From positions 1,860,001 to 1,892,000 of the forward strand of contig NZ_CP019384.1 in the NCBI RefSeq assembly GCF_004102945.1: 32,000 nucleotides of DNA, read 5' to 3'. Shown one piece after another: positions 21,916 to 32,000 of this stretch. The DNA comes from Candidatus Velamenicoccus archaeovorus (GTDB lineage Bacteria > Omnitrophota > Gorgyraeia > Velamenicoccales > Velamenicoccaceae). Each line of letters begins with the position of its first letter. Positions within the stretch are counted from its first letter, which is position 1. The position numbers and the translations under genes are program-made. The notes under the pieces are model-generated. The model did no database searches, was not told the origin of the DNA, and worked only from the letters and a program-made list of their open reading frames with translations.

Positions 21916-22161
21916 GATTTTCTCCTTTTTTATGTCCGCTCATGTCCATCAAAACGCCCATTTTGAACCCCTTGCAGACGTGTCTTTTAATCAAAAAAAG
22001 CCCGTATTCCCGACGGAAACAGGCCGTTTGGCCGTTTTTACCCCAGATGTGCTAAATCCCAAAAGTGATGGACATGGACATCGTTTTTTGAACCCCTCAT
22101 CACTGAAGGCCCGCGCCTCGCCCGACCCTCGCCCGACACCCCCTTCCAAGGACCCGCCAGC

Positions 22162-25410: not shown

Positions 25411-27507
25411 ATGATTACGCCTAATACAAATACTCAAAAGAAAAAACGCTATGTCATCTATACACGTTGCTCAACGGATGATCAAGCGCAAGGCGATTTT
25501 ACCACTTTGGATGCTCAGGCTTATCACTGCAAAAACATGTTAGATGCCTTCGGATATGAATTGGCTGAAATCGGAAAAAAAGGCATAATCAAGGACGACG
25601 GTTATTCGGGAAAAGATTTGAACCGCCCCGGAATACAGTTAATCCTCACCAATGTAAAACAAAAGAAATTCGACGGCATAATATTCTTTCGGCTTGACCG
25701 GCTCACGCGTAATCCGCGCGATCTATACGCCCTCATAGATTTATTCCGAGATACCAGAATAGATTTCATTTCCGTGCGCGAAAATTTGGACAGCTCGACT
25801 GCAATCGGCCGCGTAGTTATAGGAATACTCGGACTCCTCTCCGCGTTCGAACGCGAACTGACAGGCGAACGTGTCAAAGCTTCCTGCTTGGCCAGAGTAA
25901 GACAAGGCAAATGGGTGGGCGGCAATGTCCCCTTTGGCTACAAGTTAATCGATGACGGCGATCCTTTGCCGAACGGAAGACAGCCGCATAAAATAATCGT
26001 CGACCCTGAAAACGGCACCAAATTGCGTTTCATCTGGGAAATGGCGGCTGATAACAGATCTCTTTACGATATCGCGCAAGAGTTAATCCGCAGAGGTATA
26101 AAAACACCGAGCCAAAAAGTCTGGCGTAAACAAAGCGTCGCTTGGATTATTAAAAATCCATTCCATAAAGGCTATGTCAAATACGGGAATGAAATACACA
26201 AGGGCCATCATCCGGCTATTGTCGATGAACATTTATGGGAAAAGGCAAACAAAATTCTAACCGCAAAACTTCCCGGACATCGCTTTGCAAAACAACCCCA
26301 GGAATACATTTATCTCTTATCCGGCATCCTTAAGTGTGGGAAATGTGGCAGTCACTATGTCTGCGAAAGCGGTAACGGGCATTCTGAAAAATTCTTTTAC
26401 TATGTCTGCGGCAGATCGAAACAAGGATTGGGTTGTGAAGCGTCACGGTTATCTGCCAAGGGATTCGATGATGCTCTAATCGATTATTTTAAGCGTGCTT
26501 CCCGCGATCAAGATATCATCGTAAAAGCTATCGGCGATGCCATCTTGGATTCGCAAATAAAGCTGGAAAACCTCGAAAAACTCATTAAACCTCTTCAAGA
26601 AAAACTCTTATCGGTTCAAAAAGAAGCAAACAAGCTTCTCGAGCTGGCCATGAACAGCAAGGTATCGCAAGGAAAAACTTACAAAGATAAAATGGCAAAG
26701 CTGGATGAGGAAATTATCAGGCTGGAAGACGACTTGGAAAAACTACAAGCTAAGAAGAGTGTTGCCCAGATGTCTGCAAATTCGGGAGAGTTTTTACATT
26801 CTAACCTTCGATTTGCCATGCAATATCTCGATCAGGCCCCTCCTGATGCCCGAAAAGCCTTGATAAAAGCCCTTATCAAGGAAATCATCGTTTACCAAGA
26901 CTATATCGAAATAAAAATGTACATAGATCAACCGACTGTAGACAGCCTATCGTGCAGACTATCTGTTCCGGAGGCCCATAAACCGCCCCAAAATGACAAA
27001 CGCCCTGCAGGGGAAACCTGCAAGGCGCTTGTTACTGCATCGAACGCTCGATGTTCGCCTGAGCGTCAAGATTGGCTGCCCAGAGTTGTCGCCAGCCGCA
27101 CCGCACAACCTCAAGTGGTTCAATTAGTTGTGAAAATGGAGATTAGGCGAAGCAAGCGGATTTTGCTTAGTTTAGTCGATCCCCTGCCCCCAAAACCCAT
27201 CCGGTTGCCGCCGGTTTACCCCAATACCATAGTAGAAGCCTTAAAGATCAAGGCATTCATGAGCCAGGGGCCTACGATGCTGACCTGGGCACAAACCCGT
27301 AAAGCGTTAAATATCTCAGAAGCCAAGTTAGCACACCTGCTGAAAATAGTCAAGACGCTACCTCCGGACTTCGTAGAAAACATGAAATCTTGCACTGATG
27401 AAAGCATGCTAAAAATCTTCCACGGCCGAAGACTTCTGAAGATCTCCCGCCTAAAAACCGAGAAAGAACGCCGAAGCGAAATTGAACGCCTATTGCTAAA
27501 GATTTAG
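25411..27507 (+). CDS. large serine recombinase (phage integrase) with ~190-aa C-terminal extension
   Basis: Resolvase catalytic domain ('YTRCSTDDQ', 'DRLTRN'), a recombinase domain, a zinc ribbon ('CGKCGSHYVC...YYVCGRSKQGLGC') and a coiled coil. After 'EIKMYID' come 192 extra residues ending in a ParB-type HTH-like segment. Confidence 0.9.
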   Translation: MITPNTNTQKKKRYVIYTRCSTDDQAQGDFTTLDAQAYHCKNMLDAFGYELAEIGKKGIIKDDGYSGKDLNRPGIQLILTNVKQKKFDGIIFFRLDRLTRNPRDLYALIDLFRDTRIDFISVRENLDSSTAIGRVVIGILGLLSAFERELTGERVKASCLARVRQGKWVGGNVPFGYKLIDDGDPLPNGRQPHKIIVDPENGTKLRFIWEMAADNRSLYDIAQELIRRGIKTPSQKVWRKQSVAWIIKNPFHKGYVKYGNEIHKGHHPAIVDEHLWEKANKILTAKLPGHRFAKQPQEYIYLLSGILKCGKCGSHYVCESGNGHSEKFFYYVCGRSKQGLGCEASRLSAKGFDDALIDYFKRASRDQDIIVKAIGDAILDSQIKLENLEKLIKPLQEKLLSVQKEANKLLELAMNSKVSQGKTYKDKMAKLDEEIIRLEDDLEKLQAKKSVAQMSANSGEFLHSNLRFAMQYLDQAPPDARKALIKALIKEIIVYQDYIEIKMYIDQPTVDSLSCRLSVPEAHKPPQNDKRPAGETCKALVTASNARCSPERQDWLPRVVASRTAQPQVVQLVVKMEIRRSKRILLSLVDPLPPKPIRLPPVYPNTIVEALKIKAFMSQGPTMLTWAQTRKALNISEAKLAHLLKIVKTLPPDFVENMKSCTDESMLKIFHGRRLLKISRLKTEKERRSEIERLLLKI

Positions 27508-27523
27508 ACCTCAATTTCCCTTC

Positions 27524-28009
27524 TTATTTATTAGCCTCTACTCGCTTCTTAACATAGGCTGTTTGCTTCTTGTAGGAAAACAAAAAGATAACCAGTAAGG
27601 TAACCACGAGAATAAAAAGCTCCCACCCTCGGAGGATCGAAAACTTCCTTCCTAAAATTTCAACTAATTTAAGCAAAACGAGCAGCCCAAAGCATGCACA
27701 TAATGTGCGGTAAGTATTGTTGACTTCTGATAAAAGCTCAACTCCTTCATCTTTTTTTGTGGCGGCTACATAATCTTTATAATCTGCGAATTTAAGGAAT
27801 GACGTACATTTCAACAGTGGCTCAACAACAAGAGAGCCAACCCTACTAATTACCAACCCTACAAAATAGTACAAAAAGAGTCCCAAAATTACATCCTGTT
27901 GTATAAAAGAATAGTCAGTTATTGCGTCAGCCAGAACAACAAAGACAACTCCGGGAAAAAGATAATTAAATAGATTATATGAGGAAAGTTTATCAATTAT
28001 GTCTTTCAT
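27524..28009 (-). CDS. 4-TM membrane protein (third gene of the lipase-MBL-TM operon)
   Basis: 161 aa with four hydrophobic helices. RBS GGGGAGGAATAATAAATG begins 14 nt after the MBL stop. Confidence 0.65.
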   Translation of the reverse strand: MKDIIDKLSSYNLFNYLFPGVVFVVLADAITDYSFIQQDVILGLFLYYFVGLVISRVGSLVVEPLLKCTSFLKFADYKDYVAATKKDEGVELLSEVNNTYRTLCACFGLLVLLKLVEILGRKFSILRGWELFILVVTLLVIFLFSYKKQTAYVKKRVEANK

Positions 28010-28023
28010 TTATTATTCCTCCC

Positions 28024-29112
28024 CTATTCTGCAACTTCATCATAAAATGGCAATGGTTCTGCCTTGACCCAACCGCGATCCGGAGCATTGTCAAAATGAC
28101 ATTTTGTGCTTTCCTTAGTAGCAAGAACTTTAGCGCCACGTCTCATAAAAGCATTTACTACCTTTCGCGATGGGTGCTTAGGGTCTCCATCTTTTGGAGA
28201 GCTCACAAAGGCTGTTTTTAGGTGTGCTGGTTCCTGTAACTTTTCACCTACTATAGAGTCGAGCAAAGAAGGACCTATGTTATGCTTACTTCCATGATGA
28301 GGAACTTGAATAAAGTTTAGTGTTTTCAAATCGATCCCTAGGCTTACCGCCTTCTTGATTGCCCCACTTAACGCCTCAATACCAGCATCTCCAGTAAATA
28401 GAAATTTCTTCCCTTCAACTTGAAGCAATAAAATTACACTTGAGTTGTTTTCTGCGCTCGTTTCGTTTTCCTGCGGGTCAGCCAATGTTTCTAGTCCCCA
28501 GTTCTCAGCAACCCATTTGATCGCCTCTTTAACAGCAGTAACAATCCTCTCAGTTAAAGTCAAACTTTCTTTTGGTTCAGGTGTTTCCCGGAAATTAGCA
28601 AGCATAACACTATAGAAATCTTTGGTAGGGCTTAATACAACTATTTCGGCATTCCCGTCTGTAAAATCATCCGCAAAAGGCTCATAAACGCGAATATTCT
28701 TCTGCTTTGCCAATGATTCTAACTCATAGGCATCCTCTAATGCTTTTTTTAAATTAGCTTTTAAACTGGTCCCCGTAATTTTGCCGTTTTGAAACATGTT
28801 CTTTAAATCTTGGGCATGTTCCCATGGCCTATGAAGACATAGAACTCCAACTGTAAGATTGTTAATTACCTCGGTTAATCCAGAAGCATGATCTGCGTCA
28901 GGATGAGAACAGAAAACATAATCAACTTTTGCGGCTTTATAATATTTCTTGATATGTTCAATAAGGGATTTACCGGATTCCTTTGTCCCTCCGTCAATAA
29001 CCATTATTTTTTGCTCCGAACGATCCCCATGAAGGTTGCCCCATCGAATTGCAATAGCATCGCCTCCACGTTCACCCTCACCAACTGGTAAAAAATCTAT
29101 CTCAAATCCCAT
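28024..29112 (-). CDS. MBL-fold metallo-hydrolase, ComEC-C-terminal-domain-like (putative nuclease)
   Basis: Motifs 'IDFLPVGEGERGGDAIAI', 'MVIDGGT', 'CSHPDADHASG' and 'VPHHGSKHN'. A ~140-aa insertion separates the metal-binding motifs. RBS GAGGTGAATTATG begins 8 nt after the lipase stop. Confidence 0.8.
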   Translation of the reverse strand: MGFEIDFLPVGEGERGGDAIAIRWGNLHGDRSEQKIMVIDGGTKESGKSLIEHIKKYYKAAKVDYVFCSHPDADHASGLTEVINNLTVGVLCLHRPWEHAQDLKNMFQNGKITGTSLKANLKKALEDAYELESLAKQKNIRVYEPFADDFTDGNAEIVVLSPTKDFYSVMLANFRETPEPKESLTLTERIVTAVKEAIKWVAENWGLETLADPQENETSAENNSSVILLLQVEGKKFLFTGDAGIEALSGAIKKAVSLGIDLKTLNFIQVPHHGSKHNIGPSLLDSIVGEKLQEPAHLKTAFVSSPKDGDPKHPSRKVVNAFMRRGAKVLATKESTKCHFDNAPDRGWVKAEPLPFYDEVAE

Positions 29113-29120
29113 AATTCACC

Positions 29121-30038
29121 TCACAGATTGATTCGCTTTAGTGCCCAACCAGCTAATTTCTCACAATAAACATCAAGCGAATGATGTTGTACGCCTATAT
29201 CCTTCGCGATCGTCCACGATAACCAGATTAAATTTAGCGATCGCGTTAACTCGGCATATTCTGTTAACACTTTTGCATCTGCGTTTATTGACACTTTAGT
29301 CAAAAAGCGCATATCCCCATGATGCTGGTATTCAGAAAAGTTCTCAGCAAGTATTTTAACCTTATTGTTCTTTACCTTCTTCTTAATCAGCCAAAATAGG
29401 GGCAACATAATCGGCGTAAATGGTAAGAAAGGCACCACATCAAAAGAATTGATGACCCTGTAGATTGACGCCTTGATCTTATCGTCAAATTCTTCATTGC
29501 CGACTTTAGGGCTTCCAAATGTGTAGCATGCCGCCAGGTTATCTGAATTGATCTCGGACGTCGCAATTAAAGCCAATGCCCCGCCGAGAGAATGGCCGGT
29601 TACATACAATCCATAATCAGTCAAAGACTGCAGTTGCTGAGTAACATCTACTTGTATTTTTTTAAAAGCCGAAAGAAAACCTTTGTGAGTTTTGATATTA
29701 TTCTGATCCACCCGCATAGCGGCATATAAATCAGTAAATACATCAAAGAACGTTTCAAACGTCAAACCTTCAGTCTGTGTACCTCTAAATGATAGGACCG
29801 CCATCTTGTCAGGATCCCTTTTTGCCAAAAAGGCCTGCGTTCCATCTTGATTAAATGCTCTAACCAGTAAGAATCCTGCTTCTGTTAACGCGGATTTCAA
29901 CTCAGTGTCGTCTTTTTCAAAAGGCAAGTATGCCAGTTTCGACATTTTGGCCATAAGCCAAGATGTCCTATCACTATAAGCTGCTCGTTTTACCGGCGGG
30001 GATAATAATTCAGGATATTCAAAATATTTGCCGCTCAT
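29121..30038 (-). CDS. class 3 lipase family alpha/beta hydrolase (Lipase_3)
   Basis: Motifs 'LSFRGTQ', nucleophile elbow 'GHSLGGALA', 'YTFGSPKVGN', Asp motif 'INSFDVVPFLP' and C-terminal His 'QHHSLDVY'. The Ser-Asp-His triad appears intact. Confidence 0.85.
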   Translation of the reverse strand: MSGKYFEYPELLSPPVKRAAYSDRTSWLMAKMSKLAYLPFEKDDTELKSALTEAGFLLVRAFNQDGTQAFLAKRDPDKMAVLSFRGTQTEGLTFETFFDVFTDLYAAMRVDQNNIKTHKGFLSAFKKIQVDVTQQLQSLTDYGLYVTGHSLGGALALIATSEINSDNLAACYTFGSPKVGNEEFDDKIKASIYRVINSFDVVPFLPFTPIMLPLFWLIKKKVKNNKVKILAENFSEYQHHGDMRFLTKVSINADAKVLTEYAELTRSLNLIWLSWTIAKDIGVQHHSLDVYCEKLAGWALKRINL

Positions 30039-30120
30039 ATAAATCCTTCATAAAAAATGCCATAAATCCTGAATTCGATCGGGTTATGGTATATGACATG
30101 TTACTAAGCCCTAAAGGCTT

Positions 30121-30960
30121 TTAATCCAATTTACCTTCTTCTAGATCACCTGGAGGCTCAATCCCTAAAAATTCTCTATAAATCCTATCCTTATAATCTT
30201 TGCCAATTTCGTTCACGGCACTTATAAATGCCTTATATGTTCCTGTTCCGCCGATTTTTTCCCAGAACTCATCCCCGATAAGTACAACATCATCATTTTT
30301 CATATCAAACCAGCGAGCGGGGAAAGCCCATGCGTAATCAGCACGTTTGCCATAAGGGTTATACGGCAACGCATAATAGGCACCATCGACTTGTAGTGGT
30401 TGCATGCTGTAAAGCTTCAAAATTTTTTCTTTACTGACCTTCGTTTGATCGCTATTGGGCAAAGGAGCCTTTAACTCAAAAGCATATTTTTTATTACTAC
30501 GTTTATCCTCAGCATAAACATCGCAGATAACAGTCGTGGGGATAAGCTTCTCGCTCTTACCTTCTAAAATATATTGCAATTCCTTTTTCCAATCAGGACG
30601 CACCTTTTCCTTGCCTCGCCCGGAATGCTCCAGGGTATTCAAAACCTCTTGAATTCTTCGTAGCCGTTCTGAATTTACTTGTCCTTTTATTGACACACCC
30701 TGCTCACCATGTCCAAGCCCATTATTGGCCGCTACAATGGCTAATTTCTCCCAAACATTACCAAATGGAGTAACGAACCGCCTTTCGAAATGAGATCCTT
30801 TAAATATCTCATCCGGCACCAGAGCCGCATATAGCGGCTTCTCTGCTTTGTGGTCTTCTTTAATAAACGGATCCTCGACTAAAACCTTATGCATAATTCT
30901 GTCCATCATCGATTTGATGACAGACTGGATCGCCTCTTTCATTTTTTGTTTATCTGTCAT
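30121..30960 (-). CDS. type II restriction endonuclease-like protein (PD-(D/E)xK; possibly TdeIII-like)
   Basis: Candidate catalytic core 'CDVYAED...YAFELKAP'. The start ATG at 30960 overlaps the methyltransferase stop as ATGA, with a GGGAG RBS. The track start at 30972 is the alternative. The family assignment is from memory only. Confidence 0.55.
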   Translation of the reverse strand: MTDKQKMKEAIQSVIKSMMDRIMHKVLVEDPFIKEDHKAEKPLYAALVPDEIFKGSHFERRFVTPFGNVWEKLAIVAANNGLGHGEQGVSIKGQVNSERLRRIQEVLNTLEHSGRGKEKVRPDWKKELQYILEGKSEKLIPTTVICDVYAEDKRSNKKYAFELKAPLPNSDQTKVSKEKILKLYSMQPLQVDGAYYALPYNPYGKRADYAWAFPARWFDMKNDDVVLIGDEFWEKIGGTGTYKAFISAVNEIGKDYKDRIYREFLGIEPPGDLEEGKLD

Positions 30961-32000
30961 ATTTTCTCCCATATTAAAATGCTCTCATAAAAAGCGCCTT
31001 CTCGGCGGCCTGTTCGTCTATTTACATGACGATCGACTCGCCCTACAGATTTGAAGCCTACGTCTTCTGCCTTGTACAAGTTAAATTTATCGTTAACAAC
31101 GATTAGGGCAAGTCCTTTTTTAACCATAAAATCTCTGGTATGCGACAGAACATCGTTTATACCTTTAATATAATCTTTGCGAGCCTGTTCCGACTGTCCA
31201 TTTTTTGCGGGGCCGATTTCCCTCGTCTCATTATTTTGTAAACCCAATAGTTCGTAAGCATATTTGTGTTGGTCGTGATAATCAATAAGTCCCAGATAGG
31301 GCGGCGATGTAAAGATCATATCAATATTCTTCGGCAATTTTACTTCGCGGGAATCATCGTGAAAGATTACAACCGATGCTTCCGTTCGTAATTTTGCGTA
31401 TTCCTTTATTCTATCCAGCGTATCAAGAGTATACCTGTATAAAAACTTATAGGCTTCGCTTACTGGCTGACACGTTCGATTATGTTTATAACAAAAATAT
31501 GGTTCGATTTGAGGTTTTTTAGGGAAATCCAAATCATAGTGCGTCACAAGGCGAGCAGAGCGAGCAGAGCGCGATAAAATTACTTTCAATAAATCTTTAT
31601 ACGTGTATTTATCGATCAAGTCTTTAAAATACAGTAATTCGTTTTGCGTGCTCTGGGAGAACCATGTTTTGACGTATTCACTGCTGGTTGATAAACGGCC
31701 ATTACCTCCATTTTTTGGAGAAGAGGGGCCATATTTAAAAGTATATAATTTTTTCAGAATATCTCTCAATTCCGTTTCCAGTAAATCTAAATCATATTTA
31801 GCCGTCTTAACTTGAGAAAGCAAAGTGTTGAACGAAGAAATGTCTGTGCCGATTGAATCAACCCCAAGAATATTTGCCTCCACAAGGGTTGTTCCAGATC
31901 CACAAAATGGGTCGTAAACTAATTTTGGCTGATATTTCCTAAGGAAAATTTCGACTAATTGAGGAATAAATTTCCCCATATATGGATGCAGTCTATGGAC
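30957..32000 (-). CDS. N4C/N6A DNA methyltransferase (motif I then SPPY), 5'-truncated by the window edge
   Basis: Motifs 'DPFCGSGTTLVEA' (motif I) and 'IFTSPPYLGLIDY' (motif IV). The frame stays open to position 32000 ('VHRLHPY' precedes the first Met), and that segment resembles conserved methyltransferase N-terminal sequence. Confidence 0.85.
   Translation of the reverse strand, partial: VHRLHPYMGKFIPQLVEIFLRKYQPKLVYDPFCGSGTTLVEANILGVDSIGTDISSFNTLLSQVKTAKYDLDLLETELRDILKKLYTFKYGPSSPKNGGNGRLSTSSEYVKTWFSQSTQNELLYFKDLIDKYTYKDLLKVILSRSARSARLVTHYDLDFPKKPQIEPYFCYKHNRTCQPVSEAYKFLYRYTLDTLDRIKEYAKLRTEASVVIFHDDSREVKLPKNIDMIFTSPPYLGLIDYHDQHKYAYELLGLQNNETREIGPAKNGQSEQARKDYIKGINDVLSHTRDFMVKKGLALIVVNDKFNLYKAEDVGFKSVGRVDRHVNRRTGRREGAFYESILIWEKI

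Follow-up and report, generated by a model that had tools for sequence, protein, structure and literature searches.

A low-GC island beside an Omnitrophota prophage carries the two-gene defence candidate PDC-M48 next to a separately shuffling lipase gene

Three adjacent genes were analyzed in a 32,000-nt stretch of DNA (hereafter the window) from Candidatus Velamenicoccus archaeovorus, an uncultivated predator belonging to the Omnitrophota. They encode a class-3 lipase, a ComEC-like hydrolase of the metallo-beta-lactamase (MBL) fold, which is 100% identical to BU251_09025 of this organism, and a protein with four transmembrane (TM) segments. All positions refer to the whole window, and L001–L119 are the labels of the homologous loci with which it was compared. 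The original prediction, made from the window alone, had read these genes as an undescribed three-gene defence or exclusion operon. Our comparison shows that the MBL and TM genes are a further member of the catalogued candidate family PDC-M48, and that they are neither undescribed nor a three-gene unit together with the lipase gene. The features of the locus are listed in Table 1.

The predicted packing of the genes was confirmed by the coordinates of their open reading frames (ORFs). All three are co-directional, with gaps of 8 nt between the lipase and MBL genes and 14 nt between the MBL and TM genes. A strong Shine-Dalgarno site, which had been claimed for each gene, precedes the MBL gene (GAGGTGA) and the TM gene (GGGGAGG), but only a weaker AAGGA precedes the lipase gene. 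As predicted, the lipase gene starts 82 nt downstream of a type II restriction-modification (R-M) pair, whose two enzymes were verified by Pfam (RE_TdeIII and N6_N4 methyltransferase). The restriction endonuclease gene, with its stop at 30121, overlaps the methyltransferase gene, which is cut by the window end and encodes 398 aa in L105. The convergence with the serine integrase was also correct: the integrase stop (27507) and the TM stop (27524) are 16 nt apart. Nothing informative came from scanning the region for Rfam families, tRNAs, and promoters or terminators, and no relatives were found when viral contigs were scanned with each of the three proteins.

Table 1. Features of the locus, with positions in the 32,000-nt window
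Feature	Position	Strand	Size	Remarks
Lipase gene, class-3 (Lipase_3) serine hydrolase	29121-30038	minus	305 aa	
MBL gene, ComEC-like MBL-fold hydrolase	28024-29112	minus	362 aa	PDC-M48B
TM gene, 4-TM protein	27524-28009	minus	161 aa	PDC-M48A
Type II restriction endonuclease, TdeIII/HinfI family	30121-30972	minus		Pfam RE_TdeIII 8.1e-73
N6/N4 DNA methyltransferase of the R-M pair	30957-32000	minus		Pfam N6_N4_Mtase 4.9e-13; PADLOC MTase_II 7.7e-80
Prophage/host junction	27072-27075	no strand		Island to the right (27076-32000), serine-integrase prophage to the left
Serine-integrase (serine-recombinase) ORF	25411-27507		698 aa	

The assignment of the MBL and TM genes follows from the profiles of PADLOC-DB. 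The MBL protein matched PDC-M48B (PDLC04676) at 6.8e-104, with residues 3–360 aligned to positions 5–355 of 357, and the TM protein matched PDC-M48A (PDLC04670) at 1.6e-66, with residues 1–160 aligned to positions 1–160 of 164. With the two genes adjacent on the same strand and separated by the 14-nt gap, the pair shows all the sequence features by which PDC-M48 is recognized. PDC-M48 is a two-gene phage defence candidate, one of the 145 candidates obtained through guilt-by-embedding by Payne et al. (bioRxiv 10.1101/2024.01.29.577857). The supplement of that study lists cassette CAS_00157 (FAM_01875>>FAM_00178) with the entry 'Assign as candidate PDC-M48'. The pair is also present as 'hypothetical + Lactamase_B' in Table S5A of the P2 hotspot catalogue (Rousset et al. 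2022, PMC9122126). The combination that the original prediction did not recognize as a named system had therefore already been recorded in both resources.

The pair is widespread, and outside the closest relatives of the window it occurs on its own. MBL homologues of 36–68% identity adjoin a TM protein with a 2+2 arrangement of helices, with no lipase gene, in metagenome-assembled genomes (Planctomycetia, Acidobacteriota, Arcobacteraceae, Rubritalea, and Clostridia), in L114, and on plasmids of Acinetobacter baumannii, Burkholderia glumae, and Vibrio tubiashii. These homologues are full-length except for the copy in a Helicobacter genome, where the MBL of a likewise lipase-free pair is split by an insertion sequence. 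In the P2-like phages D8, 11W, 12W, and P24E6b of Escherichia coli, the pair lies directly after gpA in the gpA–gpQ hotspot, shown by Rousset et al. (2022, PMC9122126) to harbour anti-phage systems. The window MBL and the phage MBL share 42% identity, and the partner of the latter is a 162-aa protein homologous to the window TM protein (hmmsearch 4e-41). The pair was present in 45 of the 5,426 complete E. coli genomes, and its MBL is called 'ComEC/Rec2 family competence protein' by RefSeq. The orientation of the two genes differs between loci (co-directional, divergent, or convergent, the last as in L118 558-2146 of D8 and L119 of P24E6b), but their adjacency is retained. By these associations a role in defence is plausible for the MBL and TM genes.

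The lipase gene is a facultative neighbour of this pair, a separately shuffling island gene. It adjoins the MBL gene only where the lipase is at least 77% identical to that of the window, namely in the window itself with L105 and L106, in L001 and L003, in L002, in L013–L015, and in L107. Even within this tight clade the lipase swaps partners, which does not support the three genes as the unit that had been proposed. L010 and L011 carry the same R-M pair as the window (97% aa and 90% nt identity) and a lipase of 86–87% identity, followed by genes for a patatin and a CD-NTase of a cyclic-oligonucleotide-based anti-phage signalling system (CBASS). Their homology to the window ends at the 3' end of the lipase gene. 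In L099, the order is ATPase and RloB, lipase, patatin-CBASS, and TIR, and in L101 a lipase of 84% identity lies between Dcm/Vsr and Fic. CBASS-linked and MBL-linked lipases interleave in the neighbour-joining tree. Beyond this clade, lipases of 70–74% identity have housekeeping neighbours, and those of 53–54% identity lie in regions resembling mobile elements, beside conjugative-transfer genes in L110 and among HTH, AAA_14/DUF4143, and GIY-YIG genes in L111. Of 80 metagenome loci with more distant lipase homologues, 51 extend far enough downstream to show the neighbouring genes, and none of these 51 has the MBL gene. The neighbours in the wider lipase family (L019–L098) are mostly housekeeping genes, with a HAD hydrolase in 11 of 111 cases and DUF998 in 6 of 111, a pattern that points to housekeeping functions for the majority of this family. 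Conversely, none of the MBL+TM loci with less than about 70% MBL identity contains the lipase.

A nucleotide comparison with L010 was consistent with this shuffling. Between window 30094-32000 and L010 3434-5930, the R-M genes are 90% identical, whereas the adjacent lipase gene is only 81% identical, and L010 has two extra small ORFs between the endonuclease and lipase genes. The mismatch in identity and the extra ORFs point to a mosaic island in which recombination breakpoints lie on either side of the lipase gene. The R-M pair is likewise an independent module beside the lipase gene and the MBL+TM pair. It had been reasoned that the operon proposal would fall if the genes did not co-occur outside this locus; they do co-occur, yet only in a narrow, recombining island lineage.

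These contexts bear on a true three-gene system, in which the lipase would be integral in the Omnitrophota/Planctomycetes-Verrucomicrobia-Chlamydiae clade and would work with the MBL+TM pair as a membrane-lipid effector or activator. The junction between the lipase and MBL genes is conserved in five distinct contexts, with a gap of 8 nt wherever it was read, and the lipase gene with most of the MBL gene forms a continuous block of 83.5% nt identity between the window and L001. Moreover, both MBL-fold and alpha/beta hydrolases are known from other defence modules as latent death effectors (PMC12642450). Such a system is nevertheless difficult to reconcile with lipases of 84–87% identity that precede patatin-CBASS or Fic genes and interleave with the MBL-linked ones, with the lipase-free pairs at lower MBL identity, with the metagenome loci in which the lipase has no MBL neighbour, and with the lack of any match of the lipase in PADLOC-DB. 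We consider it improbable. A caution follows from the lipase: genes packed as tightly as an operon within a defence island need not, for that reason alone, form one system.

The lipase protein belongs to Pfam Lipase_3 (PF01764; 1.3e-27, 96.8 bits against a cut-off of 22). Its AlphaFold2 model (predicted local distance difference test, pLDDT, 84.5) matched fungal class-3 lipases and a feruloyl esterase at E~1e-12, and also phospholipase A1 (PLA1). As predicted, the Ser-Asp-His triad is intact: S150 (in GHSLGG), D200, and H286 were invariant across 32 aligned homologues with identities as low as 48%. A hydrophobic stretch follows the catalytic Asp (residues 200–219), and neither a TM segment nor a signal peptide was found in the sequence. 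The protein thus looks cytoplasmic and catalytically intact. Literature searches on class-3 lipases (Lipase_3) in phage defence returned nothing relevant.

The lipase clade could also be an independent single-gene defence or island-maintenance gene that borders variable defence cassettes on their 5' side. All seven distinct contexts with a lipase of at least 77% identity are flanked on both sides by R-M, ATPase+RloB, Vsr, CBASS, Fic, or MBL+TM genes, and the mobile-element-like regions around L110 and L111, together with the invariant triad, point in the same direction. However, the homologues of 70–74% identity and the wider family, with its HAD hydrolases, have housekeeping neighbours. This lipase lacks a sensor domain, and such an enzyme would be toxic if it were constitutively active in the cytoplasm. 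The association itself comes from a small, phylogenetically narrow sample. On balance, we regard an independent role of this kind as unlikely, though less so than a three-gene system.

The MBL protein is the better characterized part of the pair in terms of homology. The ComEC MBL domain (9ic4) was its top structural match (Foldseek E 3.3e-14, TMt 0.75), and ComEC was also the top match by sequence, in agreement with the predicted ComEC-type fold. The metal ligands H70, D74, H75, D242, H272, and H273 were invariant in the alignment of homologues, and D72 was nearly so. Residues 92–216 of the window MBL align with residues 89–144 of ComEC, which corresponds to a net insertion of ~70 aa; the ~140 aa originally given for this insertion was an overestimate. 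Both low-confidence stretches of the model lie within the insertion, at residues 179–206 (pLDDT <50) and 101–120 (pLDDT 58–67). Besides PDC-M48B, the protein matched the PADLOC models of the LmuA-associated MBL (3.9e-31), the DRT MBL (1.2e-22), and Avs1a (1.5e-13). Judged by these features, the protein looks like a catalytically intact, ComEC-like MBL-fold phosphodiesterase or nuclease.

The likeness to ComEC raises an explanation outside immunity, with the pair as a split ComEC-like device for DNA uptake or processing, or with the lipase and nuclease as prey-attack enzymes. The closest solved structure and the competence label of the E. coli homologues agree with the former, and Ca. Velamenicoccus archaeovorus is a predatory epibiont. 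On the other hand, the ComEC/Rec2 model TIGR00361 covered only the MBL part and scored 43.3 bits against a cut-off of 190, and neither a signal peptide nor an OB fold or competence channel domain is present. The contexts, too, are those of defence: defence islands, embedding in type I R-M loci, plasmids, and the P2 anti-phage hotspot. We therefore judge a role outside immunity to be very improbable. Enzymes of predation were rejected outright, as signal peptides are absent and the MBL+TM pair is also found in non-predatory bacteria.

The TM protein has hydrophobic segments at about residues 13–31, 39–62, 100–121, and 127–147. This confirms the predicted 161-aa four-helix membrane protein, in which 2+2 helices surround a central loop of ~40 aa. 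The family is large, with 2,098 homologues. Its similarity to Csx27, a TM accessory protein of type VI-B CRISPR systems, was marginal (PADLOC 1.2e-3), and the NCBIfam score of 14.6 bits lay below the cut-off of 65. A different hydrophobic protein of 160 aa takes the place of the 161-aa TM protein in L001–L003, and the comparison of the 161-aa family profile with the longer TM partners of the L001, L004, and L007 types revealed no significant homology.

The cluster of R-M, lipase, MBL, and TM genes is part of the host flank and not of the prophage, which carries siphovirus-like structural genes at 1–22 kb of the window. L105 and L106 are 100% and 99.98% identical, respectively, to window 32000-27072/27075 and lack the prophage. 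The end of the prophage was placed near 27072 because both loci match the window up to this point, after which all three sequences diverge. Consequently, the final ~145 codons of the integrase ORF (27072-27507) consist of host DNA, and this tail has no Pfam match. The idea that the cluster is cargo at the integrase-proximal end of the prophage was rejected on the grounds of these two prophage-free assemblies with a nearly identical island. The defence-island setting itself was supported. The GC content of the island (40.4%) is low compared with the chromosomal DNA beyond it (45.6% in L106 and 52.0% in L105), which fits horizontal acquisition.

The junction holds another insert at the same nucleotide in L105 (HTH_17 and Fic), and L106 resembles an empty site. 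Because of this, the junction at ~27072-27075 appears to be a recurrent integration site. Two further observations concern the prophage. A 59-bp segment at 22098-22156, between the genes of a ParB-methyltransferase and a replication initiator, is 93% identical to positions 1621-1679 of L010, an unrelated island locus, and is not a tRNA. Downstream of the tail-fibre gene, a gene at 19-1242 encodes a radical-SAM protein (phrog_1802, 3.5e-26), which may be a moron.

Several loci contain more than the pair, and these raise the question of whether the window holds the whole system. A second, shorter MBL that matches another PDC-M48B model (PDLC04673, about 1e-28) is encoded in L001 (7149-8586), L005 (7067-8849), and L006 (5043-5972). 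The pair lies beside a second MBL (MBL2) and Cap2/Cap3-like E1/E2/JAB genes in L013 (5091-8424), L107 (6507-8203), L114 (1398-4918), and L116 (1-3204), the last being the Burkholderia glumae plasmid NZ_CP065603, where the neighbours of the pair score above the NCBIfam thresholds that define the anti-phage 6A-MBL system. The pair in the window could accordingly be a trimmed remnant, incomplete or non-functional, of a ubiquitin-like operon of the 6A-MBL type that comprises the MBL of the pair (MBL-A), TM, MBL2, E1/E2, and JAB. In favour of this, MBL2 and E1/E2 follow MBL-A and TM in L013–L015 and L107 (with JAB in L013 and L014), the corresponding genes lie upstream of the pair in L114 and on the B. 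glumae plasmid, and in L108 the TM gene heads a TM-MBL2-E1/E2-JAB operon. However, the pair stands alone in the window, L105 and L106, L004, L007–L009, the Acinetobacter and Vibrio plasmids, and the E. coli P2 phages, and in L005 and L006 only the second MBL is added, with no E1/E2/JAB seen. Both ORFs in the window are intact, with invariant catalytic residues, and PADLOC defined the pair as a cassette of its own. In addition, the window MBL scored 35.8 bits against the cut-off of 220 for the 6A-MBL enzyme (NF058524), and no E1/E2/JAB gene lies between 27076 and 32000, which places the window outside the 6A-MBL definition. A remnant seems a doubtful explanation, about as improbable as a three-gene system.

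The best overall explanation is a low-GC, acquired defence island of shuffling modules, in which only the MBL and TM genes, and not the lipase gene, form a conserved functional unit, the candidate PDC-M48, which probably acts as a gated DNase with a membrane partner. Taken as a whole, we hold this explanation to be the probable one, with moderate confidence. The island (27076-32000) would be built from the R-M pair, the class-3 lipase gene, and the MBL+TM module, each shuffling independently. The mechanism proposed for the module draws on MBL relatives of the Lamassu, DRT, and Avs1 types. These are latent DNases whose active site is occluded by two inserted loops and becomes free only when a partner protease cleaves the loops (PMC12799240; PMC12642450; bioRxiv 10.1101/2025.09.03.673762). 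By analogy, the window MBL would be a latent, loop-occluded, Zn-dependent DNase from the lineage of the protease-gated HamM, Avs1a, and CanC. As the MBL gene has no protease gene beside it, the 4-TM partner is proposed as the regulator, which would hold, localize, or trigger the MBL at the membrane during infection. The outcome would be the degradation of DNA, either through abortive infection or through the destruction of incoming DNA. The TM protein might instead be a second, membrane-disrupting effector. From these comparisons, we infer a latent ComEC-type DNase with a membrane partner as the likely function.

Several points weigh against this explanation. The literature searched contains no experimental report of anti-phage protection by PDC-M48. 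Profile searches detected no protease domain among the neighbours of the MBL gene (lipase, 4-TM, and R-M genes), which leaves the gating analogy without a trigger. The inhibitory loops of the Hachiman MBL are at residues 107–129 and 184–203 (bioRxiv 10.1101/2025.09.03.673762), and the two low-confidence stretches of the window MBL coincide with these positions, but as low-confidence regions of a model and not through an alignment to HamM or Avs1a. As far as profile comparison can detect, the TM partners of distant lineages are not homologous, so that it is the architecture and not the sequence that is conserved among them. In L108, a 161-aa TM gene directly precedes a different MBL (MBL2) with E1/E2 and JAB, without MBL-A, and this arrangement could make the true partner of the TM protein debatable. 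Finally, the tight junction described above may reflect a clade-specific functional link between the lipase and the MBL.

A related proposal treats the MBL+4TM pair as a protease-independent gated nuclease with a membrane trigger or anchor, and the lipase clade as a portable accessory or a stand-alone island gene upstream of unrelated cassettes. In this full form, the proposal is tentative and, in our estimation, rather unlikely.

S24 peptidases recur near the MBL genes. A stand-alone S24 domain is encoded 20 nt upstream of the MBL gene in L005 (5571-5981), and a helicase-S24 fusion lies near the MBL gene in L107 (1-2351). A LexA-like S24 repressor/peptidase lies a few hundred nt past the window end, immediately upstream of the R-M pair (L105 578-1219, L106 582-1205, and L010 2627-3250). 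This recurrence is of interest because relatives of the window MBL are activated by proteases, and the S24 peptidases may be relevant as a trigger.

Should PDC-M48 prove to be a genuine defence system, it would reveal how a ComEC-type nuclease is controlled without the partner protease that the characterized antiviral relatives need, and would tie this control to a membrane protein. The question also becomes accessible outside an uncultivated predator, as clear homologues of both proteins occur in the anti-phage hotspot of E. coli P2-like prophages and on plasmids of Acinetobacter, Burkholderia, and Vibrio. Leads for the missing trigger come from the ubiquitin-like 6A-MBL modules that recur beside the pair and from the S24 peptidases.

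Compared with known systems, the window cluster differs from PDC-M48 as catalogued in the lipase gene, which PDC-M48 lacks, and in gene order, which is TM>>MBL in the cassette and MBL then TM in the window; PDC-M48 has no assigned mechanism. The window lipase shares the fold, the GHSLG nucleophile elbow, and the Ser-Asp-His triad with fungal and plant class-3 lipases (Rhizomucor, Thermomyces, PLA1, and, more distantly, EDS1/PAD4). Unlike these, it is bacterial and cytoplasmic, with ~20% identity, and has a conserved N-terminal RAAYSDR motif and the hydrophobic insert after the catalytic Asp. The window MBL has the HxDxDH and PHHGS motifs in common with the C-terminal MBL nuclease domain of ComEC/Rec2, from which it differs as a stand-alone, soluble protein with the ~70-aa insertion and with neither an OB fold nor a competence channel. 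The tests made showed no relationship between its 4-TM partner and the ComEC channel. Like the protease-gated MBL pro-nucleases (HamM, Avs1a, Lamassu, DRT, and Canu), the window MBL has a ComEC-like MBL fold; it matched the PADLOC profiles of the LmuA-, DRT-, and Avs1a-associated MBLs but scored only 63 bits against the NCBIfam Avs1a cut-off of 420. The partner in the window is a 4-TM protein, in contrast to the trypsin-like, caspase, or subtilisin proteases of those modules. The 6A-MBL system combines an MBL enzyme with Cap2/Cap3-like E2-E1-JAB proteins (NF058524/NF058523), and MBL-A+4TM pairs adjoin 6A-MBL or 6A-MBL-like genes in four lineages. The system given in the original prediction as the closest architecture, a hydrolase with a TM protein from P2/P4 hotspots, is Rst_Hydrolase-TM (Hydrolase-3TM) of P4 satellites (Rousset et al. 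2022, PMC9122126). Identity with this system was rejected, since its hydrolase is HAD-like (PMC9122126) and that of the window has the MBL fold, and no PADLOC match to it was obtained for the window genes. Nevertheless, the two systems are alike in their two-gene architecture of a hydrolase and a TM protein, and the P2 hotspot catalogued in the same paper also holds homologues of the MBL+TM pair (PMC9122126).

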